A stretch of DNA of 32,000 bases, taken from NCBI GenBank assembly GCA_016196885.1, contig JACPWU010000050.1, positions 30,001 to 62,000 of the forward strand, given 5' to 3'. Below are positions 4,000 through 29,939 of this stretch, in pieces. The stretch comes from Chlamydiota bacterium. Its GTDB lineage: Bacteria > Auribacterota > JACPWU01. A program made the position numbers and the translations under genes. How positions within the stretch are numbered: the stretch's first letter is position 1; every line of letters starts with the position of its first letter. The notes beneath the pieces are model-generated. The model had not been told where the DNA came from. It did not search any database and saw nothing but the letters and a program-made list of their open reading frames with translations.

Positions 4000-4126
4000 A
4001 ATTACCAATCACCAATTACAAATGTCAAATGAATGACCAATGACTCAATGTTCAATTGGACATTGAATCATTGGAAATTAATTTGTAATTGGTAATTGGT
4101 AATTGAAAATTGGTCATGGGTCATTG
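4000..4126. repeat. Type A heptamer hairpin (AATTGGT/CATTGGT units), copy 1, centred on CAATTG 4053-4058
   Basis: Right arm reads taattgg taattgg taattga aaattgg tcatggg tcattg; left arm reads aattacc aatcacc aattaca aatgtca. Hand pairing from the centre gives about 30 positions that are mostly Watson-Crick. The element fills the murC-murB stop (4130) to ddl start spacer. Confidence 0.85.
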
Positions 4127-4129
4127 TTT

Positions 4130-6355
4130 TTAATCTTCCCCCACCACCTCTACTTCATTTTCCAAAAGTACCTTTTTCTCCTGATAAACACGGTTTCGAA
4201 CCTGTTCAATGAGAGAAATAACATCCGAGGCCTTGGCCTTACCCTTATTTACAATAAAATTAGCGTGCTGAGAAGAAACCTGCGCCTCTCCATAACTTAA
4301 ATCTTTCAACCCGGATTGATCAATCAGTTCGCCTGCATGAAAGCCCGAAGGATTTTTAAAAATACATCCTGCATTAGGCAATCTTGGATAAGTCAAAACC
4401 CTTTTGTTTTTGCGGACGATCATTTTCTCACAAATTTTTCTGGGATCGGAAGGAACAAGACGAAATCTTGCCTGAAGTGCAATCTTTCCTCTGAGGCCCA
4501 GACAGGTCCGATATTTTAGTTGTAATTTTTGACGAGACAATGTTTCTAAAGCCCCTTCCGGCGTTAAAGCCGTGACAAAATCTAAGGCGTCTCCAATCTC
4601 AGAACCATAAGCCCCTGCATTAAAATGAAGGGCGCCGCCAATGGTTCCCGGAATCCCTTTTAAATTTTCCAAGCCTGAAAGACTGGCCTCCATCGCAATT
4701 TGAATCACCTCCGCCAAACTCAGTCCCGAACCGACTGTCAAATTTTCCCCCTCTACATTCCACTGGCGAAAAGAGGGACTGGAAAGACGAACCACCACGC
4801 CCCGAATCCCCCCATCTTTCACAATCACATTGGAACCATTCCCAATCACAAAAAGAGGTAAACCTTTCTTACGCGCCCATTGTTGTACTTGAAGGAGTTC
4901 TTCCAAGTGACAGGGTTCAATCCAAAAATCAGCGGGACCTCCCAAATGAAAAGTGGTGTGCTTAGCCATGGATTCCCCTTTGAGAATTCGCCCTTTTAGA
5001 GAATCCAAAACATTTTTTTTCATTTGAAGATCATCCAAAACCTCTTGACCCAAATTTGTAATATCCCCTGCCCCCAAGGTTAAAACAGCTTGATAAGCAA
5101 AATAATTTTCTAATGTGTAGTTGCGAAGACCTTCACGATCTGAAATATATTCGACGGACGGCTTCCCCCATTTTACGATCTCTTCATAAATTGAGCGGCC
5201 CGTCACACCTGCTATAGGATTTTCATGGCTTGCATAAACATCTGTGATTACAACATGATCCAAACCTTCAAAAGCTCTTCCAAATTGTTCTTTCAGGTGA
5301 TAAGTACGGCTGTAACGATGCGGCTGAAAGACACCTAATAATTTTCCGGAGAAACAAAGGCGTGCATTTTGAATCGTCGCCTGGATTTCTGTTGGATGAT
5401 GCGCATAATCATCCACGAACATCGTATTTTCAAATTGCCCTTTCACCTGAAAACGACGTGCTGCCCCTTCAAAATTTTCCAAGGCTTTTTGAATCGCAGA
5501 AAATTCAACTCCCGCTTGTAACCCCACTCCCACAGCGGCCAAGGCATTTAGGATTTGATGCCTACCTGAAATGTTTAAAGAGATTTCACCTAAATCATTC
5601 CCCTTGAAAGAAAGGTGAAATTTCGACCGCCAGGGCAAAGTTTTAACCTGAGACGCTTGAAGCTGGGTGCTTTCAGAAAAACCATAAGTAATAAAAGAAA
5701 CGCCTGGATATTGTTCAATAAGCCTTCGACAACCCAAATCATCCGAACAAACTAAAACGGGGCCTGATACCTGACCCACAAAAGTTTTAAAATGACTTAC
5801 AATTTCATTAAAATCCTTAAAAAAATCCAGATGCTCCGGCTCTAAATTGGTGATGACGGCCACCTGAGGATGATATTCCAACAAACTTCCATCACTCTCA
5901 TCCGCCTCAAAGAGAGCCCAATCCCCTTGCCCGTTCCTCGCATTTCCACTTAGAAAAGGGAAGTCTCCTCCCACCGCAACAGTAGGATCAAGTCTTCCCT
6001 CCAACAAAATTTTTGCGATCATTCCCGTGGTAGAAGTTTTCCCATGCATACCCGAAACAGCGATCGATTTTTTCTCTTTCATCAAATTCCAAAGCATTTG
6101 AGAGCGATGCAAAAGAGAGACACCAGACCTTTTCGCTTCAGCTCTCTCAACGTGAGATCCGTTGATGGCACTGGAAAAAACAACGCAGTCCCTTCCTTCC
6201 ACATAGGAAGGATGATGTCCCTGGTAAACACGAATTTTCTCGCCTAGAGAAACTTTTCTCCTGTCTGAGCCGCTGACCTCATGTCCCTGAGAAGACAGGA
6301 TACAAGCCAAGGCGCTCATGCCAGAACCGCCAATACCTATCAAATGAATTTTCAT
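4130..6355 (-). CDS. murC/murB: Bifunctional MurC-MurB fusion (UDP-N-acetylmuramate--L-alanine ligase fused to UDP-N-acetylenolpyruvoylglucosamine reductase)
   Basis: N-terminal half: IGIGGSGMSALA, GMHGKTSTTGM, DDYAHHPTEI, LTLGAGDIT (MurC). C-terminal half from about nt 5020 downward: KHTTFHLGGPADFW, VIGNGSNVIV, GIPGTIGGALHFNAGAYG, GCIFKNP, SSQHANFIVN (MurB). It is a single uninterrupted 741-aa frame. Confidence 0.9.
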   Translation of the reverse strand: MKIHLIGIGGSGMSALACILSSQGHEVSGSDRRKVSLGEKIRVYQGHHPSYVEGRDCVVFSSAINGSHVERAEAKRSGVSLLHRSQMLWNLMKEKKSIAVSGMHGKTSTTGMIAKILLEGRLDPTVAVGGDFPFLSGNARNGQGDWALFEADESDGSLLEYHPQVAVITNLEPEHLDFFKDFNEIVSHFKTFVGQVSGPVLVCSDDLGCRRLIEQYPGVSFITYGFSESTQLQASQVKTLPWRSKFHLSFKGNDLGEISLNISGRHQILNALAAVGVGLQAGVEFSAIQKALENFEGAARRFQVKGQFENTMFVDDYAHHPTEIQATIQNARLCFSGKLLGVFQPHRYSRTYHLKEQFGRAFEGLDHVVITDVYASHENPIAGVTGRSIYEEIVKWGKPSVEYISDREGLRNYTLENYFAYQAVLTLGAGDITNLGQEVLDDLQMKKNVLDSLKGRILKGESMAKHTTFHLGGPADFWIEPCHLEELLQVQQWARKKGLPLFVIGNGSNVIVKDGGIRGVVVRLSSPSFRQWNVEGENLTVGSGLSLAEVIQIAMEASLSGLENLKGIPGTIGGALHFNAGAYGSEIGDALDFVTALTPEGALETLSRQKLQLKYRTCLGLRGKIALQARFRLVPSDPRKICEKMIVRKNKRVLTYPRLPNAGCIFKNPSGFHAGELIDQSGLKDLSYGEAQVSSQHANFIVNKGKAKASDVISLIEQVRNRVYQEKKVLLENEVEVVGED

Positions 6356-7479
6356 TCTTTCCCCACCACTTCTTTCAACACCTTCACAATCCGAGCCGCC
6401 CCATCCGCAAGACCCAAGGCCTTGGCGTGCTGCGACAATGATTTTCTCAAGACATGATTCTCCACCAGCCTCGCAATTTCCTTTGCCAAAACTTGAGGAG
6501 AAAGTTCTTTTTCATCAATGAGAAACGCCGCACCTTGTTTCACCAAATAGTCGGCATTGACCCATTGATGATTCTCAATGGCATGAGGATAAGGAATTAA
6601 CAGAGACGGCAAACCGCAAAAGGTGACTTCCGCTAAAGTCGAAGCCCCCGCCCTCCCGACAAAGAGATCCGCACTGCCAAAGGCCTGCTCCACCTCATCC
6701 AAAAAAGGAAAGGCCTGATATGAAACACCATTCGGTTGATATTGATACATCACATGTTCATAATCTTTTTTACCCGTCACATGAACAATCTGAATTTTTT
6801 TAGACGTAGGTCCCATTTGATGAATTGCTTGAAGAAGACAGGTATTGATTTTCTGAGACCCCTGGCTTCCTCCCATGACCAAAATGGTAAATTTATCTGA
6901 GGCCAATTTCAAATTCCGAACGGCCTGGACCCGGTCCAGATTTAAAAATCTCTCCCGAATAGGAAGTCCTGTCACAAGCACTCTTTGATCATAAAAAAAA
7001 GGGTGTGCTCCCTTTTGTCCCTCTAAAGAATTTTTTAAGGAAGGAAAAGTGGTGCACACCACATTTGCCCATCGGGAAAGCAAACGGTTGGCACGTCCTG
7101 GCTGAAGATTGGCCTCATGAATCACTACAGGAATTTTCATCAAATGTGCCGCAAGCACAGGGGCACACGAAATGAAACTCCCGAAAGAAAGCACTGCATC
7201 GGGCCGCCTTTTTCCAAAAAGGAGTACGGCTTGAACGAAACCCAGCATCAGCATTCCCAAACATTTAAAGATCTTCCAATGAAACCCTGTCGGGAAACCG
7301 GATCCTGAAATTCCTTCAAAGAGAAAGCCCTCCTGACTCAAAAGGCTCTGATCCAATCCCCCTTGAGTTCCGATGAAATAAATTTCATCTGCCGGATTTT
7401 CTTTTTTCAGACGACGAGCCACAGCCAATGCAGGAAAGATATGTCCCCCCGTTTTACCCGCACAAATGGCAACTTTCAT
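6352..7479 (-). CDS. murG: UDP-N-acetylglucosamine--N-acetylmuramyl-(pentapeptide) pyrophosphoryl-undecaprenol GlcNAc transferase
   Basis: GKTGGHIFPALAVARRL, VMGGSQGSQKIN, GRAGASTLAEV. There is a 4-nt overlap with both neighbours. Confidence 0.93.
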   Translation of the reverse strand: MKVAICAGKTGGHIFPALAVARRLKKENPADEIYFIGTQGGLDQSLLSQEGFLFEGISGSGFPTGFHWKIFKCLGMLMLGFVQAVLLFGKRRPDAVLSFGSFISCAPVLAAHLMKIPVVIHEANLQPGRANRLLSRWANVVCTTFPSLKNSLEGQKGAHPFFYDQRVLVTGLPIRERFLNLDRVQAVRNLKLASDKFTILVMGGSQGSQKINTCLLQAIHQMGPTSKKIQIVHVTGKKDYEHVMYQYQPNGVSYQAFPFLDEVEQAFGSADLFVGRAGASTLAEVTFCGLPSLLIPYPHAIENHQWVNADYLVKQGAAFLIDEKELSPQVLAKEIARLVENHVLRKSLSQHAKALGLADGAARIVKVLKEVVGKE

Positions 7480-8663
7480 GTTTTGCGCCTCCTTGCGAAC
7501 AGACGACGTGGTTTCGCCTTCACCCGTACCCTCAAGGACTCCCGAGAGTCCCGATTCCTTCTCTGATCTAACCTACCAGCTAAATTCATTAAAATGCCGA
7601 TCCCGGCCATGTTCAAGACCAAACTGGTTCCTCCAAAACTGATGAAAGGGAGCGGCAGGCCCTTGGTCGGTAAAGTCCCCGTGACCACCCCCATGTTAAT
7701 CACCGTCTGAAAGGCCAGGAGGCTCACAATCCCAAGGCCCATGAGATGACCCAGAAGATCCTCTGTTTTCAAAACCACGCGAAAGCCCAATACAAAAAGG
7801 AAAAAGAAGGCAAGACACACCATCAAAACTCCCAAGAAACCCAACTCTTCTCCGATAATGCTGAAAATAAAATCCGTATGCGCCTCTGGCAAATAAAATA
7901 ATTTCTGACGAGACTCTCCCAAACCAACCCCCGTTAATCCCCCTGAACCCAAGGCAATAAAGGATTGAATGATTTGAAATCCGACTCCCTTAGGGTCTTT
8001 CCAAGGATCTAAAAAGGCAAGAATTCGAGCCCGCCGATATGCGGCCCCCGCGATGAGATAATAAAGGGCCGGCAGGGAGATGAGTGTCAATCCCAGAAGA
8101 TAGGTGAAACGGACGCCTCCGACAAACAAAAGGATCATTCCGACGGTTCCAATCCCCAATGTAGTCCCAAGATCTGGCTGAATTAAAATCATCACAACCA
8201 TCAACCCTAAAACAGCAATCGGCGGAAGAAAACCATGCACGAAAGACTTGACTCTATTTTGACCCGAAGACAACCTTTTTGCCAAGAAAAAAATAGTCGC
8301 ATACTTAGCAAGTTCAGATGGTTGAAAACTAAAGCCTCCTACTTTTAGCCAACGACGAGCCCCGCCCACCTGATGACCGACAGAAGGAACCATCACCCCC
8401 ACGAGAAGAATGGCTGATAAAATTAAAATCCATAGCGATGCGCTCCCCCAAAATTCATAAGGGACACGATACCCCACGTAAAGCGTAACCACACCAAAGG
8501 CCACCCATAAAAGCTCCTTCCTCAAGAAAAAGAGAGCATCTCCAAAACGCTCCTGAGCCAGAATCGCACTGGTGCTGTAAATCATCACCAGTCCTACGGC
8601 GATTAAAAAAAGTGTAGTGTAAAATAAAAGATACGCTGTTTTTTGCATATTTTTTTCAGACAC
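7476..8663 (-). CDS. ftsW: SEDS-family peptidoglycan glycosyltransferase FtsW
   Basis: Polytopic membrane protein with QPSELAK, QPDLGT and PEAHTDFIFS motifs. The GTG at 8663 overlaps the murD stop; an alternative ATG lies at 8648. Confidence 0.9.
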   Translation of the reverse strand: MSEKNMQKTAYLLFYTTLFLIAVGLVMIYSTSAILAQERFGDALFFLRKELLWVAFGVVTLYVGYRVPYEFWGSASLWILILSAILLVGVMVPSVGHQVGGARRWLKVGGFSFQPSELAKYATIFFLAKRLSSGQNRVKSFVHGFLPPIAVLGLMVVMILIQPDLGTTLGIGTVGMILLFVGGVRFTYLLGLTLISLPALYYLIAGAAYRRARILAFLDPWKDPKGVGFQIIQSFIALGSGGLTGVGLGESRQKLFYLPEAHTDFIFSIIGEELGFLGVLMVCLAFFFLFVLGFRVVLKTEDLLGHLMGLGIVSLLAFQTVINMGVVTGTLPTKGLPLPFISFGGTSLVLNMAGIGILMNLAGRLDQRRNRDSRESLRVRVKAKPRRLFARRRKT

Positions 8664-10128
8664 GGCTTAGTTCAAAGGCCGAACGCACTTGATCCTTAAA
8701 ATATCTCCCCCTCTCCTCAAAATTCTTGAACTGATCAAAACTCGAACAGCCCGGAGAAAGTAAAACCGTATCCTGTGGAGAAACTTGCTCTCTCAAAACA
8801 TGAACCACGTCTTTCAAAGAAGAACAAAGTAGAGACTTACAGGCATCCTTCAACTTTTCGTAAATCAAAGGTCCTGCCTCTCCATAAAAATAGGCCTTTT
8901 TCACCTTTCCTGAAAGAAGAGGCTTTAAAAGTTCAAAATCCCCCCCCTTGAAACGTCCTCCTGCTAACCAAAGAATGGGTTTTGGAAAAACCTCTAAGGC
9001 TGATCGTACCGCATCCACACTGGTCGCCTTAGAATCATTCACCCAACGGGCCCCTTCCCACTTCGCAAATATCTCTTGACGATGTTCCAAACCTGAAAAA
9101 GAGGAAACGGTACGACGAATGGTTTCTAAAGAAATCCCGCATAAAGAGGCAGCAGTCACTGCAAACATCACATTTTCTAAATTGTGCTTGCCAGGAAGAG
9201 CAATGTCTTCCACGGGCATGATTTCATGAATGTAATCGTGACTTAATGAAGTCCCTTTAACCCCTCCAACTCCCCTTAAATAAGGGGAGGGCTGCTCCCC
9301 TCTTATGTTAAGAGGGGTTGGGGGAGTTAATGAATTTTTTCCATCATTGAAGCTTTTCATCCTCACACATAAAATCCTATTTTTAACAAAACATCCTTTC
9401 TCTTCCACCCCTTTAGAATTTATAAAAAGAGTCTTCACATGGGATGACGCAAAAGAAGCGCAAGAACGATTGACCAGGGCCCAATCTTCTTCATTTTGAT
9501 TGCGAAAAATATGGGCCTTGGCCGACCCATACGCTTCCATAGAAGGGTAACGATCTAAATGATTGGCTGTCACATTTAATAAGAGACTGACCCATGGCTT
9601 CAAATTTCCAATCGCCTCCAATTGAAAAGAACTCACCTCTAATACCCAAATTTCTGTCAGGGGATTCTCAAGCACAGCCCTCGATAAACTCAAGCCGATA
9701 TTCCCAGCCAAAGTCGCCTTAAGACCTGCGTCGCTTAAAATTTTCCAAATCAAAGTGGCCGTCGTACTTTTTCCATTGCTTCCCGTCACAGCAATGATTT
9801 TGCCGGATAAAAATTGACTTGCCCATTCCAACTCCCCCAAAACGGGAACCCCTCTAGCTGACAAATTTTTCACGAGCGGCATATCCAAGGGAATCCCTGG
9901 ACTTAAAATTGCAAAATCTACCTCTCGACAAAAATTTTCAGAATGAATCCCCAATTCTACTTCCACTCCTACCGTAGGAAGCTTCTCAGCCCTGTGAATC
10001 ACCTCTTCACCACAGGAAGAATCTGTCACACGCACAGAAGCGCCCAATGATTTCAGGAGCAAACTCGCGCCCAAACCCGACTCGCCTAAACCAATGACCA
10101 ATGCTTTTTTACCAATCAAAGATTGCAT
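8656..10128 (-). CDS. murD: UDP-N-acetylmuramoylalanine--D-glutamate ligase carrying a 28-aa in-frame insertion
   Basis: GLGESGLGASLLLK, VTGSNGKSTTATL, LPGKHNLENVMFA, NDSKATSVDA. At 490 aa it is longer than usual because of the 9251-9334 insertion. Confidence 0.9.
   Translation of the reverse strand: MQSLIGKKALVIGLGESGLGASLLLKSLGASVRVTDSSCGEEVIHRAEKLPTVGVEVELGIHSENFCREVDFAILSPGIPLDMPLVKNLSARGVPVLGELEWASQFLSGKIIAVTGSNGKSTTATLIWKILSDAGLKATLAGNIGLSLSRAVLENPLTEIWVLEVSSFQLEAIGNLKPWVSLLLNVTANHLDRYPSMEAYGSAKAHIFRNQNEEDWALVNRSCASFASSHVKTLFINSKGVEEKGCFVKNRILCVRMKSFNDGKNSLTPPTPLNIRGEQPSPYLRGVGGVKGTSLSHDYIHEIMPVEDIALPGKHNLENVMFAVTAASLCGISLETIRRTVSSFSGLEHRQEIFAKWEGARWVNDSKATSVDAVRSALEVFPKPILWLAGGRFKGGDFELLKPLLSGKVKKAYFYGEAGPLIYEKLKDACKSLLCSSLKDVVHVLREQVSPQDTVLLSPGCSSFDQFKNFEERGRYFKDQVRSAFELSRV
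9251..9334. mobile_element. 84-bp structured palindromic insertion inside murD, bounded by 8-bp direct repeats (MITE/RPE-like)
   Basis: TTAATGAA occurs at 9243-9250 and again at 9327-9334, exactly 84 nt apart. Between them, an outer stem (ttaacccctccaa / ttgggggagttaa, 2 mismatches) encloses two 9-bp hairpins: ctcccctta-aa-taaggggag and cccctctta-tgt-taagagggg. The insertion translates in frame as TPPTPLNIRGEQPSPYLRGVGGVKGTSL. Confidence 0.55.
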
Positions 10129-10195
10129 AATTTAATTTCAATAATCTTTCGAGATCATCGTAGAGGACGAAAGTTCTCCCCATCATGCTTTTTTT
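10129..10195 (-). repeat. Conserved leader module, copy 1 (directly 5' of the murD ATG on the mRNA), including the T7/A7 tract
   Basis: The 40-nt string gaaagttctccccatcatgctttttttgtagtcgcccgatt is identical to that in 16380-16419. The flanking atctttcgagatcatcg is also shared. It contains a uORF that starts ATGATG at 10186. Confidence 0.8.
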
Positions 10196-10349
10196 GTAGT
10201 CGCCCGATTTATCCCCCCACCCAATCCAGCTGTTATCTTTAGCACGTTCGTAAGCTTATGACCCGTGCATTGATCGCTAAACAATCCCGCCACCTTGGAT
10301 AGATTGGGTGGGGGGATGAATCGGGCAGCCCCATAAATGGGGCGACTAC
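10196..10349. repeat. REPIN-like inverted REP doublet with GTAG heads, copy 1 (carries a nested insertion)
   Basis: GTAGTCGCCCGAT...ATCGGGC is followed by the inverted GCCCCATAAATGGGGCGACTAC. Each half is GTAG plus a short palindrome. The outer 10-bp stem is TGTAGTCGCC/GGCGACTACA. Confidence 0.6.
10211..10317. mobile_element. 107-nt insertion with perfect 16-bp terminal inverted repeats, nested in the loop of the first REP hairpin
   Basis: ATCCCCCCACCCAATC (10211-10226) is the exact reverse complement of GATTGGGTGGGGGGAT (10302-10317). The homologous REP in copy 2 has only cccgaTTCAtcggg at this position. Confidence 0.55.
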
Positions 10350-10355
10350 AAAGAG

Positions 10356-10480
10356 TCCAAAATCCAAAAATCAAAATGCAAAATGACAATTCAAAAATTA
10401 AATTTTTTCAACGCAACAATATTAGAAACATTTTGGATTTTGGTATGTCATTTTGATGTTTGATGTTTGGATTTTTAATT
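10356..10480. repeat. Type D heptamer hairpin (CAAAATN / AT-only units), copy 1
   Basis: Left arm reads tccaaaa tccaaaa atcaaaa tgcaaaa tgacaat tcaaaaa; right arm reads ttttgga ttttggt atgtcat tttgatg tttgatg tttggat. The mraY stop codon (10480-10482) lies at the end of the right arm. Confidence 0.8.
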
Positions 10481-11577
10481 TATCTTAATTTCAGCACCCC
10501 CAAACTCAACAATGCAAAAATCGCCGCCAAAATCCAAAATCGAATCGTCACCTTTGTCTCAGGCCAACCCTTCACCTCAAAATGATGATGGAGAGGGGCC
10601 ATCTTAAAAATCCTTTTTCTTCGCAATTTAAAAGAGCCCACCTGGAGCATCACGGAAAGGGCCTCGATCACAAAAACACCTCCCACAATGAAAAGCATCA
10701 TCTCTTGTTTAGAAAGAAGCGCAACCACACCCAAGCTCCCGCCCAAGGCCAAAGACCCTGTATCCCCCATAAAAACTTGAGCAGGATAAGCATTATACCA
10801 AAGAAACCCCAGACCCGCCCCTACGAGGCTAGCGCAAAAAACGGTCAATTCTCCAACCCCTGCGACCGGTTGAAGTTGAAGGTAGGTCGCAAATTTGACA
10901 TTGCCGACGAGATAAGTCAATGCCGAAAAAACCAGGGCAGAAACCGTCACACACCCAATCGCCAAACCATCCAAACCATCCGTCAAATTCACCGCATTCG
11001 ACGATCCGACAAAAACACTCAATAAAAATATAAGATAAAAAAATCCCAAATCGAAAGTCCAGTTTTTAAGAAAAGGAAGACTCACATGACTAAAAAAGGG
11101 TTGCAGATGATGTTCATGCCTCATGAAGAGCCAAAGAACAACAGCCAAGAGAATTTGCACCACAAATTTTGTCTTGGCCCTCACACCTAAAGACCTTTTA
11201 TTTTTCAATTTTAAATAATCATCCCAAGCCCCCAAAAACCCAAGACCCGTCACACAAAAGACAGTGATCCACACAAAATGATTGGTTAGATCAGACCAAA
11301 GAAAAACGGAAATTAAAATTGCGAGGAGAATCAAAGCCCCGCCCATGGTGGGCGTTCCTTCTTTACTGCGATGAAGGGCAAAAAGAGGCGGGCATTCTTC
11401 TTTGCGAATGTTCTGGCCTACTTTGAGAGAATACAATTTTCGAATGAGCCACGGGCCCAAAAAGAGGGTCATCGCAAAAGCTGTCACAGCTGCAAAGGCC
11501 GCCCGGAAGGTGATGTAACGGAAGACGTTAAAGGGGGAAAAAATTTCTCTTAAAGGATATAACAAATGATACAGCAT
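10480..11577 (-). CDS. mraY: Phospho-N-acetylmuramoyl-pentapeptide transferase
   Basis: MLYHLLYPL..FNVFRYITFRAAFA, PTMGG, NAVNLTDGLDGLA, VFMGDTGSLALGG, APLHHHFE. Confidence 0.95.
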   Translation of the reverse strand: MLYHLLYPLREIFSPFNVFRYITFRAAFAAVTAFAMTLFLGPWLIRKLYSLKVGQNIRKEECPPLFALHRSKEGTPTMGGALILLAILISVFLWSDLTNHFVWITVFCVTGLGFLGAWDDYLKLKNKRSLGVRAKTKFVVQILLAVVLWLFMRHEHHLQPFFSHVSLPFLKNWTFDLGFFYLIFLLSVFVGSSNAVNLTDGLDGLAIGCVTVSALVFSALTYLVGNVKFATYLQLQPVAGVGELTVFCASLVGAGLGFLWYNAYPAQVFMGDTGSLALGGSLGVVALLSKQEMMLFIVGGVFVIEALSVMLQVGSFKLRRKRIFKMAPLHHHFEVKGWPETKVTIRFWILAAIFALLSLGVLKLR

Positions 11578-11587
11578 GAAACCTCAA

Positions 11588-13039
11588 TCAAACGGGGTGG
11601 GTCGCAGGTAATATTTCTTTACGATAATGATGCTGACCCTGAAGTTGGACGACCAAGGCTCGGACGATCCCTTCCATCCCCATGGCCCTGGATCCCTTTA
11701 CCAACACGGCATCTGAATCTCCTAAAATACTCAAATGATGTAAAACCTCTTCATGGCTCTCACACATCACACTGGCCGATTTTGGAAAACCCTTTTTTCT
11801 TACTTCTTCAACCATTAAACTCGACAAAGGCCCCATGCTGATCACAATATCTACCTGTGCCTTTAAAACCTCTGTGGCCAAAGCCCGATGCCAATGGGCC
11901 TCATCCTCTCCCAAATCCAACATATCGGCGCAAACAAAAATTTTCTTTCCAACAACTTTCATCGCCTTAAAAGTTTCCAGCGCGGCCGCCATAGATTGAG
12001 GATTGGCGTTATAGGCATCATTGACAATAGCAACGCCGCCCACGCGGGTTACATCCCATCGCATGGAAGGCAACTTCAATTGCGAAGCCTTCTCAAACAT
12101 CTCATACCAAGGCACTCCCAGGACATGCCCTATGCACAAAGCCCCTAAAACATTATAAACATGATGAAGCCCGATAAATGGAATTTTCATCATGCCCAAT
12201 TCTTTCCCTTCAAAAATCAATGAGAACCGTGTGGCATATCCTTTGAGAAGCTCAATTTTCGAGGCCCTCAACTGCCCCCCTTCATAAATCCCAAAAGAGA
12301 AAAGAGGCCCTTGATAGGTCTTGGCCTTTTTCCGAAGGAGAGAATCATCCTCATTGTAAATTCCAACCCCTCCATTCAACCCCGCGATCAAATTCCATTT
12401 TTCCTCAAGAACGCCTTCTAAGCCCTTGAGCATTTTCAAATGGGAGGGTCCTACATTTAAAACCACACCCACTGTTGGGGACGCTATAGAAACAAGTTTT
12501 TCAATCTCTCCCGGGCCGCTTGTTCCCATTTCGACAGAGCAGGTCCGATGCGCGGCTCGAAACTTTAAAAGAGTGAGAGGAACCCCCAAATGATTGTTCA
12601 AGGTCCCTTCATTTTTAAGATTGGGACCCAAGGGCTCGAGCATGACCGCCGTCATTTCTTTCACCGTTGTTTTTCCGCAAGAGCCTGTAATCCCAATCAC
12701 AGGAATCGAAAAGAGACACCGATAGTGACTGGCCAACCTCTGAACCGTTTCAAGTCCATCCTCCACATAACCCACTGCGATTTCGCCTCGACGAAGCAAG
12801 TCCATAGAAGCTCCATCCAGCAGACGACTCATCAAAACACCCTTGGCCCCTTTTGAAACGGCTTCTCGGACAAAATCATTTCCATCAAATTTAGGGCCCT
12901 TCAAGGCAATAAAAAGATCCCCGGCATTTATTTTTCTCGAATCTGTCGAAACCCCTTCAAAAGGGGTAAAAGAGCGCCCAAAAACATGACGGGCACTTGT
13001 ATAATTCAAAACTTGTTCAAATGTCAGAAAATCACTCAT
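11588..13039 (-). CDS. murF: UDP-N-acetylmuramoyl-tripeptide--D-alanyl-D-alanine ligase
   Basis: TDSRKINAGDLFIALKG, GITGSCGKTTVKEM, NDAYNANPQSM, LVKGSRAMGME. Confidence 0.93.
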   Translation of the reverse strand: MSDFLTFEQVLNYTSARHVFGRSFTPFEGVSTDSRKINAGDLFIALKGPKFDGNDFVREAVSKGAKGVLMSRLLDGASMDLLRRGEIAVGYVEDGLETVQRLASHYRCLFSIPVIGITGSCGKTTVKEMTAVMLEPLGPNLKNEGTLNNHLGVPLTLLKFRAAHRTCSVEMGTSGPGEIEKLVSIASPTVGVVLNVGPSHLKMLKGLEGVLEEKWNLIAGLNGGVGIYNEDDSLLRKKAKTYQGPLFSFGIYEGGQLRASKIELLKGYATRFSLIFEGKELGMMKIPFIGLHHVYNVLGALCIGHVLGVPWYEMFEKASQLKLPSMRWDVTRVGGVAIVNDAYNANPQSMAAALETFKAMKVVGKKIFVCADMLDLGEDEAHWHRALATEVLKAQVDIVISMGPLSSLMVEEVRKKGFPKSASVMCESHEEVLHHLSILGDSDAVLVKGSRAMGMEGIVRALVVQLQGQHHYRKEILPATHPV

Positions 13040-13049
13040 TTGTATTAAC

Positions 13050-14531: not shown

Positions 14532-14534
14532 AAA

Positions 14535-14609
14535 ATTCCCAATACCAAATTTCCAATGACAATTTAATTTCCAATGATCCAATCTCCAATTGGACATTTG
14601 TCATTGGTT
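14535..14609. repeat. Type A heptamer element, copy 2 (asymmetric: long left arm, short right arm)
   Basis: aattccc aatacca aatttcc aatgaca ... ccaattggacatttgtcattggtta. It shares the CCAATTGGACATT core. The ccaatgacaa/ttgtcattgg 10-bp stem is present. The ftsI stop and last codons (..NTNQ*) lie inside the element. Confidence 0.75.
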
Positions 14610-19360: not shown

Positions 19361-19651
19361 TCACCCACCCAACCTTCCATCCCTGAAGAATTGAAGCGTG
19401 TGAATGGTAAAAATTGAGATGCCAATGGAAATTCTTAAAAGCCTGAAAAATTGAATTCGAAAGGTATCTTGTTTGGAACGAAGCATGCCCGCCACTCCAT
19501 CACTGACCAAAAGAACTCCAGCCGCAAATGCCCAATAATCCACAACCACAGGCCCAGATTTTGAAAAAAACGTATGCCACGTAGAGAAACAACTCAACGC
19601 CGCGATTAAAAATGCAAAGGCCAAAAGATATTTCTTTTCGGCAAAGTCCAT
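19361..19651 (-). CDS. Small hypothetical membrane protein (about 3 TM)
   Basis: The ATG at 19651 (MDFAEKKY) has GAAGGAG 7 nt upstream. Hydrophobic segments are LLAFAFLIAALSCF, YWAFAAGVLLVSDGVAGM and LLRISIGISIFTI. I recognise no family. Confidence 0.5.
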   Translation of the reverse strand: MDFAEKKYLLAFAFLIAALSCFSTWHTFFSKSGPVVVDYWAFAAGVLLVSDGVAGMLRSKQDTFRIQFFRLLRISIGISIFTIHTLQFFRDGRLGG

Positions 19652-19661
19652 AAGCACTCCT

Positions 19662-20318: not shown

Positions 20319-20324
20319 AATCTC

Positions 20325-20438
20325 AAATTTCCAATGACCCATTCCCAATGTCAAATGAATGACCCATGACTCAATATCCAATTGGACATTCGATCATTGG
20401 AAATTAACTTGTCATTGGCAATTGAGAATTGGAAATGA
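20325..20438. repeat. Type A heptamer hairpin, copy 4, centred on CAATTG 20379-20384
   Basis: aaatttccaatgacccattcccaatgtcaaatgaatgacccatgactcaatatccaattggacattcgatcattggaaattaacttgtcattggcaattgagaattggaaatga. It sits between the gcvPB stop (20445) and the ligase start. Confidence 0.85.
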
Positions 20439-20444
20439 TCAAAG

Positions 20445-23633: not shown

Positions 23634-24764
23634 TCAATTTTGGATTTTGGATTTTAAAGAAGACAATCCACCTTTGTAAAACGGCGTCTTCACTATTTCT
23701 GCCAAGCGCTCCACGCCTCGAATGGAAATATAAATCGGAATCCCTACATGCGCATAAGCAATGTCAATATAGGCTAGACCTATATTTTTACTCAACGTGG
23801 GCGAAAAGGAACCCGAAGTCACAAGACCCATTTCTCTTCCATCCCTCAAGACAGAATGCCCTTGTCTTGGAATGGCCTGATCAATCATTTCAAATCCCAC
23901 CAAGCGGCGTTTCAAACCTTCTTCCCGCTGGCCGATCAAGGCCTGCCGTCCTATAAAATCGCCTTTGTGAAAAGAGATCGTCCACGCAAGCCCTGCCTCT
24001 AAAGGCGTATTTTCCTGGGTCATATCGTGTCCGTAAAGAAGGTATCTCATTTCTAATCTTAAGGTGTCCCGAGCTCCTAACCCCACGGGAATCACCTCAT
24101 GACCGATATCCACCCTAAAAAGCTCATCCCAAAAATCGAGGGCCTTTTCTTTGGGAATAGAAATTTCAAAACCGCTCTCTCCCGTATATCCGGTTCTTGA
24201 AACAAGAAGCTCAACTTCTTTCCATTTCATCTTTTTAAAATGATAATAGCCCATGTCATGAAGTGATGCCCCTAATAATTTTTCCATCAGGAGATCTGCC
24301 AAGGGCCCCTGCACTGCCAAGAAGGCTGTGCCCTGGGACTCATCCAGAAAAGATACATTCTCACCTTTCGCTTGAGTCTTCAGCCATTTCAGATCCTTTT
24401 CCACATTGGACGCATTCACCACCAAATAAAACTCATCCATTTTATTTTGATAAACCAAAATGTCGTCTAAAATTTTCCCCTCTTCATTACACAAAGGGGT
24501 GTACAAAATTTTTCCGTTCTTTAATTTTTTTAAATCATGGGTGATCATTTTTTGAAGAAATTCAAAGGCTTGAGGTCCCCTCACCCACAAACGTCCCATG
24601 TGAGAAATGTCAAAAACCCCAACCTTGCGCCTCACGGCCTGATGCTCCTCTAAAATCCCCCGATAATAAATGGGCATGAGAAAACCAGCAAATTCGGCCA
24701 TGCGGGCGTGAAGCGCGACATGTTTGTCATAAAGAGGAGTTTTTCGAAGAGAAACGTGAGACAT
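23634..24764 (-). CDS. gcvT: Aminomethyltransferase (glycine cleavage T protein)
   Basis: KTPLYDKHVALHARMAEFAGFLMPIYY, VFDISHMGRL, RTGYTGESGFEI. The ATG at 24764 overlaps the upstream TGA (TGATG). Confidence 0.94.
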   Translation of the reverse strand: MSHVSLRKTPLYDKHVALHARMAEFAGFLMPIYYRGILEEHQAVRRKVGVFDISHMGRLWVRGPQAFEFLQKMITHDLKKLKNGKILYTPLCNEEGKILDDILVYQNKMDEFYLVVNASNVEKDLKWLKTQAKGENVSFLDESQGTAFLAVQGPLADLLMEKLLGASLHDMGYYHFKKMKWKEVELLVSRTGYTGESGFEISIPKEKALDFWDELFRVDIGHEVIPVGLGARDTLRLEMRYLLYGHDMTQENTPLEAGLAWTISFHKGDFIGRQALIGQREEGLKRRLVGFEMIDQAIPRQGHSVLRDGREMGLVTSGSFSPTLSKNIGLAYIDIAYAHVGIPIYISIRGVERLAEIVKTPFYKGGLSSLKSKIQN

Positions 24765-25665: not shown

Positions 25666-25676
25666 TAAAAAACTGT

Positions 25677-25732
25677 GCATCGTACATAGCACATCGCCAT
25701 TCGTAAAAAAACGAGTAACGACTAACGACGAT
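25677..25732. repeat. Type F heptamer element (eight 7-nt units around an A7 centre)
   Basis: gcatcgt acatagc acatcgc cattcgt aaaaaaa cgagtaa cgactaa cgacgat. The lipoprotein gene's stop and last codons (ADRR*) lie in the right-hand units. Confidence 0.55.
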
Positions 25733-26126
25733 CCGCAAGCACCAGTTCATCTAACTTTGCAAGAATAGCCTCTCGAGCATCACTGGCAAAAACATCCGAA
25801 GGATATCTTCTTTTCCTCACCAAATAAATCTCGCATTGAGAAGCCCCCAGAGGATAAACATAGATCCCATAGACGGAACCTGTTTCACCCAAAGAAGCAG
25901 GCTGATATCCAAGAACCTCAATCCTCTCTTGCCGATTGCGGTTCACTCTTTCAACAACAAGACCACAGTTTTCAAGAGCCTTTTGTGAAAGCTCCACCAT
26001 TTTCTCAAAGCTCTCATCATATAAAATTTCCTGCCCCTCGCCCCGCTTCACATGTTCCAATTCTGAGACCGTGGTGCAACCCGTCAAAACGATTAAACAC
26101 AAAAAGGCACAAATCAATTCTCTCAT
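25722..26126 (-). CDS. Small lipoprotein, function unknown
   Basis: The ATG at 26126 gives MRELICAFLCLIVLTGC, a signal peptide with an LTGC lipobox. GAAGGGG lies upstream. The ORF-track N-terminal extension reads through the type C repeat. Confidence 0.6.
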   Translation of the reverse strand: MRELICAFLCLIVLTGCTTVSELEHVKRGEGQEILYDESFEKMVELSQKALENCGLVVERVNRNRQERIEVLGYQPASLGETGSVYGIYVYPLGASQCEIYLVRKRRYPSDVFASDAREAILAKLDELVLADRR

Positions 26127-26173: not shown

Positions 26174-26180
26174 TAAAAAG

Positions 26181-26268
26181 CAGGGAATAGGGTGTAGGGA
26201 TTAGGGTATAGGGAACAATGTTCTTAATTAAAATCATTATTTCCCTAAACCCTACACCCTATTCCCTG
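26181..26268. repeat. Type C heptamer hairpin (TAGGGNN units), copy 1; on the minus strand it is followed by T5
   Basis: cagggaa tagggtg tagggat tagggta tagggaa ... ttccctaaaccctacaccctattccctg. It starts 7 nt after the tRNA(CAT) 3' end and may act as an intrinsic terminator. Confidence 0.8.
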
Positions 26269-26275
26269 CATTTCA

Positions 26276-26348
26276 TGGGCCCACTAGGATTTGAACCTAG
26301 GACCAATGGATTATGAGTCCACTGCTCTAACCGCTGAGCTATGGGCCC
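26276..26348 (-). tRNA. tRNA with CAT anticodon; elongator type, probably tRNA-Ile2 (lysidine), alternatively tRNA-Met
   Basis: The reverse complement folds as GGGCCCA-TA-GCTC-AGCGGTTA-GAGC-A-GTGGA-CTCATAA-TCCAT-TGGTC-CTAGG-TTCAAAT-CCTAG-TGGGCCC-A. It is not an initiator: G1-C72 is paired and the anticodon stem lacks the 3 G-C pairs. C4-G69 and C5-G68 match E. coli ileX. Confidence 0.88.
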
Positions 26349-26355
26349 GAAAAAA

Positions 26356-26444
26356 GTAGGGCATAGGGTATAGGGCTCAGGGCTTAGGGAAAAAATAAAT
26401 AAACAACCTTACCCCAAACCCTACTCCCTACACCCTATGCCCTG
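26356..26444. repeat. Type C heptamer hairpin, copy 2; on the minus strand it is followed by T6
   Basis: gtagggc atagggt atagggc tcagggc ttaggga ... taccccaaaccctactccctacaccctatgccctg. It sits between the rpoD stop (26450) and the tRNA(CAT) 5' end (26348). Confidence 0.8.
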
Positions 26445-26449
26445 AATTT

Positions 26450-28084
26450 CTACGCAGAGATATAATCCAAGAATCCCTTGAGCTTCTTAGATCGAATGGG
26501 ATGGCGCATCTTCTTCAAGGCTTTTGCCTCGATCTGACGTACACGCTCGCGCGTGACATTAAAAACCTTGCCCACCTCTTCCAGGGTTCTCGGAGAACCA
26601 TCGCCCAATCCAAAGCGAAGCCTCAAGACCCGCTTTTCGCGAGGGGTTAAAGTCTCAAGTACATTTTCAATCTGCTCCTTCAAGAGGCTATACCCCGTTG
26701 CCTCCGCCGGATTGCGAATGGTTTTATCTTCAATGAAATCCCCGAATTGGCTGTCCTCTCCATCCCCAATCGGCGTCTGAAGAGAAATGGGATGCTGAGA
26801 AATTTTCAGAATGCCGCGTACCTTTTCCACAGGAAGATTCATCTCCTCGGAAATTTCTTCCGGCGTCGGCTCTTTCCCATATTCTTGCACAAGCTTTTTC
26901 GAGACACGTACCAATTTATTGATGGTCTCAATCATGTGAACTGGGATGCGAATGGTTCTGGCCTGATCCGCAATCGAACGCGTGATGGCTTGACGAATCC
27001 ACCACGTGGCGTAAGTGCTGAATTTATAGCCACGCTTGTATTCAAATTTATCCACAGCCTTCATCAAGCCCAGATTTCCTTCTTGAATCAGATCCAAAAA
27101 GGAAAGCCCGCGATTCGTGTATTTTTTGGCAATGCTGATCACGAGCCGAAGATTGGCCTCGACCATGTCATCTTTGGCGGATCGCATGCGATTCGTCCAA
27201 TGCTCTAAGGTCGCAGACTGCTGTTTAAATTCGTCCAGCGTAACGCCTAAAGTTTCTTCAATACGCTTTAATTTTCGGCGTTCATTCTGAACCCTCGCTC
27301 TTCGAAGTTTGGAAGACTCTCCCGGACGAGACAGCTCAATCTCCCGCTCTGCCGCAACAATTTTATCTCTCAAAGAGAGAACCTTATCTACCAATTCATC
27401 AATGACCTCTTGGCGAAAATAAAACTTCCTGAGCAGTGAATTGAGTTTCCTTCTTTTCTCCTCAAGCTTTTTCAATTTTCGATTGCGAATCCCTTTGGAG
27501 ATCCTCTTGCGAACCTCTTTCACGAGGACGAAAACTTCTTTCTCCAAGGTCTCTGCATGATGACACACCCTAGAAAGACCTGAGATATAGCGCTCTTTAT
27601 TCGTCACAAATTTATCAATCACGACACGGTCAAACCGCTCCTTGCCGGCCAAAAGCCTTCGAGCAATGATCACACTTTCTTTGGGAATATTTCCGAAGGT
27701 AAAAAGAAAGGAACGGATTTGCTGATCGGCTTCCTCAATTCTCTTGGCCAAATCTACCTCTTGTTCTCGGGTGAGAAGAGGGACTTTGCCCATCTGCTTG
27801 AGATACATGCGAACAGGGTCGTCCAGCACCTCCGTTTTGGAGGATTCATCCTCTTCCTTCGTCTCTTCCTTGGCCTTCCATTCCTCCTCTGCCTTTTTCC
27901 GTTTGGCATCATCTACAATCTGAACTTCCATGCTTCTTAAAAGAATAAGCATGGACTCAATTTCATCTGGAGAAATCACATTTTCAGGAAGGACCTCATT
28001 GATATCATCATAGGTCAAGACGCCCTTTTCACCAGCCATTTTAACCAGCTGCTTAATTTTGGTATTTCTCTCTTCTTTGGTCAT
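26450..28084 (-). CDS. rpoD: Primary RNA polymerase sigma factor (sigma70)
   Basis: Region 1.1 acidic stretch. Region 2: [41 protein letters not shown]. Region 3: [12 protein letters not shown]. Region 4.2: [25 protein letters not shown] prefer the ATG at 28084 (MTKEERN). Confidence 0.93.
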
Positions 28085-28162
28085 GTCTCCAACTCCCGCC
28101 CTACCCTCTCTCATGACTAAGACACATAAGAAATGAAAAAGATTAAAAGAAAAGTGATGATA

Positions 28163-29902
28163 TTACATTTTCTTAAGCGTTGCAATTTCTTTCTGAAGTC
28201 CTTGCAGCTCAACTAAAATAACGCCGATTTGAGCTGAATTCTTCCCTGATTCTTCAAGCCTTTTTAATTCCTGAGTCAAATTCAGACATTTTTTATCGTA
28301 AGTCCTTAATTTAAAGGTAGTTATATAATCAGAAAGAACTTTTTCTGGATTCTGGAAAGAAAATTTTTCCACCAGAAGACTGCTCAGAATACCTTGAAAT
28401 CGAGGATCAGACAGCAAAGAATCGGCACCTTTATTCTCTAACATATTCTGAAGCAATAACTTATAATCTTCAAATTCAAAATCCTCTGGTTTAACTTCTC
28501 CCCTGACCTTCTCAAAAAGCCTTGAGTCCGACAAAATAAGCTTCAAAAGCCCCTTTTCTAAAGCACAGGGTCCTGGCAATTGGGAAGGATCCTTTTCTCC
28601 AGAACGAAACTCTGACCTCGCTGGCTTGATACCCTTTATTTCTTCCCGCAAAGACTGTTCAGAAATCTTTAGCCTTTGACTTAAAAGCTGAAGATAATGA
28701 TCTTGAAGCACCGCATTTTTAATGCGACTCAGGATCGGCAAAATTTCTCGTGCGATTTTCAGTTTTGAAACCTCATCCTGTGAGGGATGACGATTCATGA
28801 GAATACCGATTTTAAAATCAATCATGGAGGGAGACTCCTGAATCAGCTTTAGGAAAGCCTCTTTTCCGTTTTTTCGAATCCACGTATCCGGATCATCCCC
28901 TTCAGGAATCTGTGCAATTTTGACAATCATGTCCTGACCGAGAAAAACTTCTAAGGCCCGAAGAGAGGCCTCGACCCCTGCCCTGTCTCCGTCGTAAGCA
29001 ACCACAACGCCTTGGGCAAAGCGCCGTAAGATTCGGACATGATTTTCATTGAAGGCGGTTCCGAGGGAGGCCACCACATTTTCAACACCTGCCTCATACA
29101 CATGGATCATGTCCATGTAGCCTTCGACCAAAATCACCCGAGACTCTTGAAGAATGGCCCTTTTGGCCAAATGAAGGCCGTAGAGCAATTGGCTTTTATT
29201 GAATAACGGGGTTTCGGGAGAATTTAAATACTTGGGCATCTGGTCCCCCAGCGCACGGCCTCCAAAGCCCACAACTCTGGCCTGGGCATCCATGATGGGG
29301 AACATAATCCTTCCTTTGAAGCGGAGATTTTTTCCGCCCCCACCTGGGCCTGTCACACCCACGCGCTCCAAGAGTTTTTCCTCGAGCCCCAATCGCTGAA
29401 ATTCTTTCAGCACCTCCGTCTCCCTCAAAGGGCAATAACCCATTCGAAAGGTTTCAACCATTTTTTTATTCACCCCTCTTGCCTTAAGATAATTCCTCGC
29501 CTCAGCGGCCTCTTCTGTGAAGAGGGATCTCTGAAAAAAGTGGGCCACCTTTTCTGCAACGTCAAAGAGCTGTTTCTTTTGAAATTCTCCCGATCCCTCC
29601 TTTACTTTTGAGATGACCACACCCGCCTTTTCTGCCAGGATTTCCACAGCCTCAGGGAAACCGATGTTCTCATATTTCATCAAGAAGCTAAAAACATTGC
29701 CTCCCGCTCCACAACCGAAGCAGTGAAAAATCCCCTTCTCAGGATTCACCATAAAGGAAGGCGTTTTCTCAGGATGAAAAGGGCACAAGGCCTTGTAATT
29801 GCGCCCAGCCCCTTTGAGCGGCACATATTGTGCAATCAACTGCACAATATCCACCTTGAGCTGGATCTGGGAAAGTGTACTTTCAGGAATTAATTCAGAC
29901 AT
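28163..29902 (-). CDS. dnaG: DNA primase
   Basis: Zn finger CPFHPEKTPSFMVNPEKGIFHCFGCGAGG, plus TOPRIM motifs (LVEGYMDMI, AYDGDRAG). I prefer the ATG at 29902 (MSELIPEST); the ORF-track extension reads through the type B repeat. Confidence 0.92.
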   Translation of the reverse strand: MSELIPESTLSQIQLKVDIVQLIAQYVPLKGAGRNYKALCPFHPEKTPSFMVNPEKGIFHCFGCGAGGNVFSFLMKYENIGFPEAVEILAEKAGVVISKVKEGSGEFQKKQLFDVAEKVAHFFQRSLFTEEAAEARNYLKARGVNKKMVETFRMGYCPLRETEVLKEFQRLGLEEKLLERVGVTGPGGGGKNLRFKGRIMFPIMDAQARVVGFGGRALGDQMPKYLNSPETPLFNKSQLLYGLHLAKRAILQESRVILVEGYMDMIHVYEAGVENVVASLGTAFNENHVRILRRFAQGVVVAYDGDRAGVEASLRALEVFLGQDMIVKIAQIPEGDDPDTWIRKNGKEAFLKLIQESPSMIDFKIGILMNRHPSQDEVSKLKIAREILPILSRIKNAVLQDHYLQLLSQRLKISEQSLREEIKGIKPARSEFRSGEKDPSQLPGPCALEKGLLKLILSDSRLFEKVRGEVKPEDFEFEDYKLLLQNMLENKGADSLLSDPRFQGILSSLLVEKFSFQNPEKVLSDYITTFKLRTYDKKCLNLTQELKRLEESGKNSAQIGVILVELQGLQKEIATLKKM

Positions 29903-29909
29903 AGGAAAT

Positions 29910-29939
29910 AGCGTACAGCGTATAGCGTTCAGCGGACAG
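29910..29939. repeat. Type B heptamer array, solo arm
   Basis: agcgtac agcgtat agcgttc agcggac ag. I see no convincing complementary arm. It sits between the cvpA stop and the dnaG start. Confidence 0.7.

Follow-up and report, generated by a model that had tools for sequence, protein, structure and literature searches.

Short palindromic repeats with arms of degenerate heptanucleotides are dispersed through the co-directional operons of the 32,000-nt stretch analysed here (hereafter the window; positions 30,001 to 62,000 of contig JACPWU010000050.1, from the metagenome-assembled genome (MAG) GCA_016196885.1). They are the same kind of sequence as the short tandemly repeated repetitive sequences (STRRs) of cyanobacteria and the heptanucleotide simple sequence repeats (SSRs) of bacteria, and do not constitute a new kind of system: they represent, as hairpins, the STRR-like heptanucleotide class, which here is densely packed and occurs in a lineage new for it. 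Judging from the arrangement of their arms and loops, these elements probably originated at the DNA level, via slippage in 7-nt steps, copying from arm to arm, dispersal and homogenisation. Altogether, 14 loci of at least five sequence flavours lie within the 32 kb, and a sixth flavour is found just outside the window.

A seven-nucleotide period in the operon spacers

The window was scanned for self-matches (threshold of at least 17 matches in 21), with 50 Markov shuffles serving as controls. The scan returned 11 strong runs at period 7, none at periods 4–6, 8, 9, 11 or 12, and a single run at period 10 that corresponds to the MraZ boxes described below, whereas the shuffles produced no period-7 run at all. 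An initial annotation of this DNA, made from the letters alone, had listed 14 heptamer-periodic loci, and this listing holds: Tandem Repeats Finder (TRF) called period-7 arrays at 12 of them, while the two that it missed, at 14535 and 20325, are degenerate copies that were assigned to the A family by homology and by the A-core pattern. The units share a design in which a conserved core is combined with two freer positions (CCAATnn, CAGCGnn, TAGGGnn, CAAAATn).

At 11 loci the arrays form long hairpins on the coding strand, with a minimum free energy (MFE) as low as −62 kcal/mol. The folds of nine spacers reached z-scores between −3.5 and −12 against shuffles, while A2 and F1 gave weak folds. 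For each of the 11 period-7 runs, a partner in inverted orientation lies at most 200 nt away, and three loci are one-armed arrays (13063–13085, 23637–23655 and 29910–29939). With the start codons corrected (see below), stems begin 0–7 nt past the upstream stop codon or tRNA end and finish 0–21 nt ahead of the next start, where the initial annotation gave 0–6 and 5–55 nt. Among the 15 spacers of the co-directional block that are 40 nt or longer, 12 contain an array, in 11 cases a hairpin, as compared with none of seven spacers in the adjacent promoter-type region (Fisher p = 0.0007), which bears out the claim that imperfect palindromes fill most spacers of the block. Other parts of the annotation needed amendment. 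The elements were placed inside polycistronic mRNAs, which is an inference and is wrong for B2, as this hairpin precedes the dcw promoter, between the divergent rnpB and mraZ genes. They were also described as intergenic, yet the arrays at 13063 and 23637 encode the C-termini of MurE (last 8 residues, SVQRVAYS) and GcvT (last 6 residues). At 13053–13085 and 23637–23655 heptamer arrays have been absorbed into coding sequence, and the MurE and GcvT tails of relatives are unrelated to the array-encoded ones.

The arrays are reproduced in independent assemblies. Three other contigs (one from an NCBI MAG and Logan contigs from two runs) are 100% identical to the window over positions 1–10350 and 26277–32000, so the arrays are not an assembly artefact, and the variation between read sets that the initial annotation had considered is not seen. 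A1 is identical in two other assemblies, and both C1 and the cvpA-dnaG array are reproduced in the Logan contig L127. The contig of GCA_016178005.1 stops exactly at D1 (10350) and one Logan contig exactly at C2 (26277), as expected if D1 and C2 are multi-copy sequences in the genome.

Comparison with known RNA families and signals placed the elements in none of them. Rfam 15 at gathering score found only the RNase P RNA and a tRNA in the window, with no match in the spacers, and a relaxed search (E ≤ 1) over 10100–16700 gave nothing credible. A consensus scan for intrinsic terminators, with 17 and 33 sites where shuffles had 19.8 and 22.7, was not above background; among the elements it caught just the inner A1 stem, and its loop-size limit misses most of the hairpins. 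Runs of T5–6 follow the stem in C1 and C2 only. Intrinsic terminators are defined by a GC-rich stem with a short loop and a U-run directly behind it, and this identity was rejected. A CRISPR array was likewise ruled out, since CRISPRs consist of 24–48 nt repeats with unique spacers whilst the units here are contiguous 7-mers arranged as inverted arms.

Homologous families with exchanged arm heptamers

Each flavour behaves as a dispersed family with members in both orientations. A1, A3 and A4 align across ~110 nt, aperiodic stretches included, and A2 aligns with them only as a reverse complement, its A-core pattern being matched on the plus strand. The loops of B1 and B2 are reverse complements of each other (on the plus strand, the conserved B1 loop reads ACAGTTTGAAGGAACTTATTTTT), and D1 and D2 are the first modules of paralogous spacers of 330–350 nt. 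The clearest indication of how the arms evolve came from a non-periodic loop, ACAGTTTnAAAGGA..TTATTTTT, which is present in four hairpins from two genomes: B1, B2, a hairpin at 884–960 of L127, and the mraY>murD hairpin of a relative (L006). The arms around this common loop are composed of AGCGKWC in B1 and B2, AGTCCAT/GGTCCAT in L127 and TAAGCTK in L006. A homologous centre with three different arm heptamers suggests that the arms change in concert, as satellite arrays do. It also agrees with the initial annotation's argument against a single family of miniature inverted-repeat transposable elements (MITEs), as there are several families, some of whose homologous-loop copies carry different heptamers.

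Within individual elements, unit variants in one arm are mirrored by the pairing partner in the other arm. Six A-like copies (from this genome and metagenome contigs) contained 8 double-change pairs compared to 4.0 ± 1.2 in shuffles, and a covariation score of 0.242 compared to at most 0.135 for slid controls. The arms are not always of equal length, however: those of B2 comprise 6.3 and 2.7 units and those of C2 differ by a one-unit indel. Such whole-unit differences would fit slippage, while the homologous multi-copy members in both orientations, together with the assembly breaks at D1 and C2, point to dispersal.

The two D-containing spacers have two further modules in common besides the hairpins (mraY-murD, 10129–10351; ftsL-ftsI, 16323–16517). 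One is a GC-rich palindrome, GTAGTCGCC...GGCGACTAC, at 10196/10341 and 16406/16458, and the other a near-identical 60-nt block right before the murD and ftsI starts (10144–10188 and 16354–16398) that contains a possible mini-ORF, MMGRTF(V/I)..DDLER (ORF, open reading frame). Rfam has no family for either the palindrome or the block.

Occupied and empty junctions in relatives

Two relatives, L006 (59% identity in MurF) and L004 (57%), have the same dcw gene order as the window. L006 carries heptamer hairpins at rsmH>ftsL, mraY>murD and ftsQ>rnhB, whereas in L004 a single heptamer hairpin occupies murCB>ddl and mraY>murD holds a GC-rich palindrome. The units of L006 and L004 are unrelated to those of the window, although one L006 hairpin does share the B1/B2 loop. 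In L140/L141 and L142 no period-7 arrays were found and the junctions are 7–40 nt long or overlapping, as compared with 69–351 nt for the same junctions in the window. Since corresponding spacers in relatives of the same dcw order are short or hold hairpins of other heptamers, the elements are lineage-specific gains with fast turnover, a pattern also found at fabF>leuC and leuC>leuD in four Omnitrophota genomes, and the long spacers of the window exist, on this comparison, owing to them. In L004, a run of Ns with duplicated flanks lies inside the murD-ftsW spacer (9082–9181).

More distant occurrences were retrieved with two patterns. A metagenome scan with the A core returned 11 contigs, eight of which are CCAAT-type arrays; the pattern is itself built of CCAAT units, and we do not claim homology for these eight. 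The remaining three (L133, L135 and L138) represent one coding sequence that holds no arrays, and we set them aside as chance matches. One A-core contig, L139, which its FabF places in Candidatus Omnitrophota, has a hairpin at each of the junctions fabF>leuC and leuC>leuD. Another three Omnitrophota genomes, picked through FabF and thus unbiased for repeats, contain 2–7 period-7 runs per 21 kb.

A second scan, of a genome collection with the B-type pattern AGCGKWCAGCGKWCAGCG, gave at least 120 loci, a sample that is biased to B-like arrays. These matches were first read as chance; on re-analysis, most proved to be real heptamer arrays. They come from Acidobacteriota, Planctomycetota, Verrucomicrobiota, Bacteroidota, Chloroflexota, Nitrospirota, Gemmatimonadota, Myxococcota, Cyanobacteria (Moorena, Oscillatoria and Okeania among the matches listed), Proteobacteria and Actinobacteria. 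The 120 loci listed contain 259 runs at period 7 compared to 2–24 at other periods, and 36 of the 120 have at least two unrelated flavours. An inverted partner was found for 27% of the arrays in these loci, against 5% for a decoy. When nine other loci are added, 136 distinct units are found among 281 runs. We did not use the fraction of cross-taxon arrays inside a stop-free stretch (61%), as this measure is unreliable in GC-rich genomes. Despite its bias, the survey shows that several heptamer alphabets, often in hairpins, are a general bacterial phenomenon and not peculiar to this genome or lineage; what stands out in the window is the density of the elements and the pairing of every strong array. 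Elsewhere, an exopolysaccharide gene cluster (L131; Ga0335071_10007823, GC 54%) holds 7–8 heptamer arrays of about five flavours within 11 kb, including an inverted GTATAAG/CCATATA pair at 5387–5464.

Relation to known heptanucleotide repeats and palindromes

Knowledge of heptanucleotide repeats in cyanobacteria dates back to about 1990, when STRRs were reportedly described by Mazel et al. from heterocystous or filamentous species. The main A unit, CATTGGT, is by inspection a rotation of TTGGTCA, reportedly the STRR2 unit. The window also displays two features by which heptanucleotide SSRs and STRRs are recognised, i.e., an excess of 7-nt tandem arrays over other periods and an intergenic position at many loci with several unit types. 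The initial annotation had pointed to STRRs as the closest precedent, aptly so, as heptamer hairpins are on record between hupS and hupL and upstream of hoxW in Nostoc, Anabaena and Lyngbya (PMC2670836). Like the window elements, STRRs are degenerate, intergenic tandem heptamers at multiple loci, with several unit types per genome, and can form hairpins between co-transcribed genes (PMC2670836). The host differs, being a Chlamydiota MAG and not a heterocystous cyanobacterium; both its NCBI label, 'Chlamydiota bacterium', and the complete mraZ-ftsQ dcw cluster place it outside the STRR hosts in the strict sense, as the initial annotation had suspected. Further differences are that all 11 strong arrays here are hairpin arms, that the spacers of an essential dcw operon are nearly saturated, and that copies share non-periodic loops.

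Similar arrays have been reported from other bacteria. According to the citing papers (PMC4679880, PMC4692102), Mrazek et al. (2007) found heptanucleotides to be the commonest long SSR class and proposed polymerase slippage. The over-representation of period 7, the intergenic location, the scattered phylogenetic distribution and the proposed origin all agree with our observations; as represented in those citations, it is a statistical account of direct arrays that does not extend to dispersed hairpins, loop homology or concerted arm change. In two genomes of Xanthomonas, Rehm et al. (2015) described 186 and 183 intergenic repeat patterns of the GGGAATC type (GGGANTN), some of which are arranged as inverted pairs (PMC4692102). 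The GGGNATC/GGGGAYT repeats of Xanthomonas and Nostoc combine a conserved core with variable positions, lie in intergenic regions near starts and stops, include some inverted pairs capable of forming stem-loops and an array inside the pec operon, and differ in their unit sequences, in being mostly unpaired and in the focus on G-quadruplexes (PMC4692102). Flavour C (TAGGGnn) resembles them in having G-tracts every 7 nt, as seen in C1, and the C1/C2 tracts are compatible with a G-quadruplex motif.

MacGregor (2015) described TAACTGA repeats in Beggiatoaceae, cyanobacteria and Bacteroidetes, and also reported that Microcystis mixes several heptamers and that Cyanothece strains differ by 7-nt indels (PMC4679880). 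These repeats resemble the window elements in being intergenic heptamer arrays near start codons that span distant phyla, and in the mixing of heptamers in one genome, but they comprise 169 direct sets against one inverted, and a single dominant unit prevails that always has the same orientation ahead of starts (PMC4679880). Literature on heptamer repeats in Chlamydiae, Planctomycetes, Verrucomicrobia and other members of the PVC group was searched, and nothing relevant was found.

Among palindromic elements, repetitive extragenic palindromic (REP) sequences and REPINs (PMC3116915, PMC3333891) share with the window elements an extragenic position just after stop codons, a length of ~70–130 nt, several families per genome and a known or presumed effect on mRNA 3' ends. 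The window elements are indeed extragenic imperfect palindromes in multi-copy families, but REP/REPINs are not known to have a 7-nt periodicity, are conserved in sequence within a family and are defined by a gene for a REP-associated tyrosine transposase (RAYT) of the Y1 HUH type. Eukaryotic Foldback transposons likewise have long inverted arms of degenerate short tandem repeats around a central loop, with variable arm length; they are much larger and some encode a transposase, so that the likeness is architectural only.

Proposed origin and alternative explanations

In the DNA-level origin that we consider probable, replication slippage would add or remove units in 7-nt steps, and either template switching from one side of the hairpin to the other or selection for pairing would keep the arms mirror images of each other. 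Whole elements would then be copied into other intergenic sites in either orientation, and satellite-like homogenisation of the arrays would leave homologous central loops with different heptamers. The elements collect in gaps between translationally uncoupled genes in long co-directional housekeeping operons. Once transcribed, an element would become a stem of 20–45 bp that starts 0–7 nt past the stop codon and reaches to or near the next ribosome-binding site. From this geometry, such stems would be expected to impede 3' exonucleases, to be cleaved by RNase III or to cause partial termination of transcription, and might make access to the next start site depend on termination at the preceding stop codon. 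Altered relative expression within the operon would then be a side effect, perhaps co-opted later.

Several observations weigh against this origin, and a number of them would fit selection on RNA structure. As an alternative, the hairpins could be selected as punctuation of the operon, where the transcript requires a long stem (an RNase III site, a 3' stabiliser, an attenuator or a coupler that hides the ribosome-binding site) and the sequence of that stem is free to turn over. We consider this rather unlikely as the explanation of the elements. In its favour, the stems abut stops and starts, the pairs covary across copies, C1 and C2 are followed by T-runs, and for STRR hairpins earlier authors have speculated about effects on the stability of transcripts, on translational coupling or on termination (PMC2670836). 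The sense strand folds with the lower MFE in 8 of the 11 hairpins, and G.U mismatches outnumber A.C mismatches in sense-strand stems by 23:9. This asymmetry has p = 0.02 against an expectation of 0.5 and p = 0.12 against the 0.6 expected from the G+T bias of the strand itself, and because the sense strand is G+T-rich we treat the G.U excess as suggestive and regard the case for selection on the RNA as weak. The same junctions are also occupied more than once: mraY>murD and murCB>ddl carry unrelated hairpins in different genomes, as do fabF>leuC and leuC>leuD, which in the three further Omnitrophota genomes have hairpins of other flavours or nothing. On the other hand, both orientations occur within families (A2; B1 vs B2), B2 lies outside an operon and upstream of a promoter, L004, L140, L142 and L145 manage without a hairpin at some of the same junctions with just 7–40 nt, the terminator scan did not exceed shuffles, and copying between arms at the DNA level also predicts covariation. 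Further points speak against the DNA-level origin in their own right. No 7-nt polymorphism was found among the three assemblies of the population, which thus give no sign of ongoing slippage. The A-core matches in other taxa may, to judge from the pattern, be convergent and not homologous. The portion of the genome covered is ~40 kb; within it, neither an empty site nor a target-site duplication (k > 2) at the hairpins nor a transposase was found that would account for the copying step.

Dispersal of multi-copy, extragenic families in both orientations could also reflect classical non-autonomous transposons of the MITE or REPIN type, in which the heptamer arms are binding sites for a transposase or RAYT encoded elsewhere and the loop is part of the element. 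This would account for the assembly breaks at elements and for the loop common to two genomes that are only ~59% identical in MurF. Nevertheless, we judge it improbable. The fold-defined ends of the 11 hairpins show no direct repeat of more than 2 nt (weak evidence, as the boundaries are fuzzy), and no transposase gene or related insertion sequence was seen in the ~40 kb. Arms differ among copies with the same loop, the opposite of transposase-bound terminal repeats, and slippage better explains the one-armed and coding-tail arrays. Viral contigs scanned for the A core and the loop motif gave no link to phages, with no A-core match and five loop-motif matches, all without heptamer arms. The conserved 5-nt core with two variable positions (CAGCGnn, TAGGGnn) would alternatively suit arrays bound by a protein whose recognition of DNA or RNA advances 7 nt at a time (for instance a cold-shock protein, an S1-like protein or some other protein that binds single strands, or a nucleoid protein), in which case the hairpin would be incidental. 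S1, Csp or CsrA have been proposed as binders of the TAACTGA repeats (PMC4679880), and a Nostoc preprint reported that heptamer arrays affect promoter output and suspected an unknown binding partner. Yet 136 units across taxa, at least five of them in the window, are too diverse for a single sequence-specific binder, and pairing with the complement, seen in all 11 window arrays, would mask sites for a single-strand binder; this explanation is very improbable. An assembly artefact or chance low-complexity sequence, which a short-read MAG with contigs that tend to end at repeats might have led one to suspect, is effectively refuted by the three identical assemblies, the lack of period-7 runs in shuffles and the equivalent structures in independent genomes.

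More speculatively, and with low confidence, the elements could belong to an undescribed foldback-type class, in which a conserved central module (such as the ACAGTTTnAAAGGA..TTATTTTT loop of the four hairpins in two Chlamydiota genomes) is flanked by arms that expand and homogenise in strict 7-nt register. One register-specific process would then also lie behind STRRs and multi-flavour arrays, and the elements would be kept at the junctions of operons because they serve in processing or coupling. If true, there would be a dedicated, or at least shared, molecular cause of the '7'.

Heptanucleotide repeats were reported in 2007 to be over-represented in many bacteria. The locus provides a compact test case, with 11 hairpins of five or six flavours in two or three essential operons (dcw, gcv and dnaG-rpoD) and a lineage that includes relatives without elements at the same junctions, and it extends the phenomenon to Chlamydiota and Omnitrophota. 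The homologous loop with different arm heptamers points to concerted, satellite-like evolution, and this exchange of arms, along with the occupied and empty orthologous junctions, is the part most worth pursuing, since it makes the questions of why seven and what for testable. In practical terms, the repeats evidently fragment short-read MAG assemblies, and they push gene callers to false N-terminal extensions (murE, ftsL, the lplA-like gene, dnaG and orf171).

Genomic setting and coordinates of the elements

The proteins of the window carry the label 'Chlamydiae/Chlamydiota bacterium' at NCBI according to exact protein look-ups, which matched two NCBI MAG assemblies as well as the Logan assemblies of SRR12113387 and SRR12113417. 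The source is groundwater, and the MAG is derived from short reads. The nearest MurF relatives are 52–62% identical, and outside that small clade identity is ~40%. All genes relevant to the arrays are on the minus strand, which holds the full dcw cluster (mraZ, rsmH, ftsL, ftsI, murE, murF, mraY, murD, ftsW, murG, a murC-murB fusion, ddl and ftsQ). Upstream of it, on the same strand, are gcvT-H-PA-PB and the lplA-like gene, and still farther upstream a cvpA-like gene, dnaG and rpoD, with tRNA-Met and tRNA-Val close by. The coordinates of the elements are collected in Table 1.

Table 1 Heptamer elements and the RNase P RNA gene, in order of window position
Feature	Position	Strand	Description
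A1	3996–4128	−	CCAATnn hairpin, murC/B fusion-ddl spacer; TRF period 7 in both arms; MFE −50 to −59
D1	10352–10476	−	CAAAATn hairpin, first module of mraY-murD spacer; whole-spacer MFE −128.9, z −10.3
murE-tail array	13063–13085	−	One-armed AGCGKWC; TRF period 7, 3.3 copies; overlaps last 8 murE codons
A2	14535–14608	+	Truncated A-family copy, ftsI-murE spacer; weak fold (z −0.6); no TRF call
D2	16518–16652	−	CAAAATn hairpin, first module of ftsL-ftsI spacer; whole-spacer MFE −104.8, z −8.3
A3	17100–17208	−	A-family hairpin, rsmH-ftsL spacer; MFE −39.9, z −5.2
B1	18138–18226	−	AGCGKWC hairpin, mraZ-rsmH spacer; MFE −50.7, z −7.0
B2	18818–18922	−	AGCGTTC hairpin, divergent rnpB-mraZ region, upstream of dcw promoter
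rnpB (RNase P RNA)	18964–19356	+	Rfam match
A4	20316–20444	−	Degenerate A-family hairpin, gcvPB-lplA-like spacer; z −5.2; no TRF call
GcvT-tail array	23637–23655	−	AAAATCC, 2.7 units; encodes last 6 GcvT residues
F1	25668–25736	−	Weak (nnnTCGT)n hairpin, orf171-tRNA-Val spacer; TRF 2.9 copies; MFE −15 to −22, z −3.5
C2	26176–26272	−	TAGGGnn hairpin just downstream of tRNA-Met, then T5 run; z −10.6
C1	26352–26446	−	TAGGGnn hairpin, rpoD-tRNA-Met spacer, then T6 run; z −12.1
cvpA-dnaG array	29910–29939	−	One-armed AGCGKWC, upstream of true dnaG start 29902 (probable); reproduced in L127
L127 hairpin	L127 884–960, ~700 nt past right end of window		Units AGTCCAT/GGTCCAT; MFE −37, z −3.3; upstream of rsmE-like gene

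Sense and antisense MFEs are −44.4 and −30.0 for A4 and −59.2 and −41.8 for C1. C1, C2 and F1 adjoin tRNA genes, a further amendment to the initial annotation; tRNA-Met is flanked on both sides by TAGGGnn hairpins (26176–26446), the arms of which could also pair across the tRNA in the manner of a processing stem.

Start codons were corrected using hidden Markov model (HMM) coordinates and the positions of Shine-Dalgarno sequences. The longest-ORF starts of murE (14597), ftsL (17123), the lplA-like gene (20381), orf171 (26237) and dnaG (29956) belong to false extensions that read through the repeats. Translation probably begins instead at 14531, 17081, 20318, 26174 (or 26126) and 29902, respectively, and public dnaG gene calls (595 aa) appear to take in such a false N-terminal extension. 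For example, the ftsL ATG at 17081 lies 21 nt from the end of A3 and is preceded by the Shine-Dalgarno sequence GGGGGTGAT.

A promoter-like site, TTGACA-17-TAAACT, is located at 18814–18786 ahead of mraZ. Between this site and mraZ, three GTGGT boxes with 10-nt spacing (18752–18776, minus-strand reading) probably represent the MraZ operator, and the GTGGTGAAAAGTGGTAACTTGTGGT arrangement is likewise found upstream of mraZ in L006. The murC-murB fusion is a single ORF of 741 aa (4130–6355, minus strand), and the same fusion is present in L004 (801 aa) and L006 (756 aa). A 113-aa ORF at 19361–19702 (minus strand), for which no matching family was found, may not be a real gene; it adjoins the 3' end of the RNase P RNA gene, which lies on the opposite strand, and overlaps the lplA-like gene.

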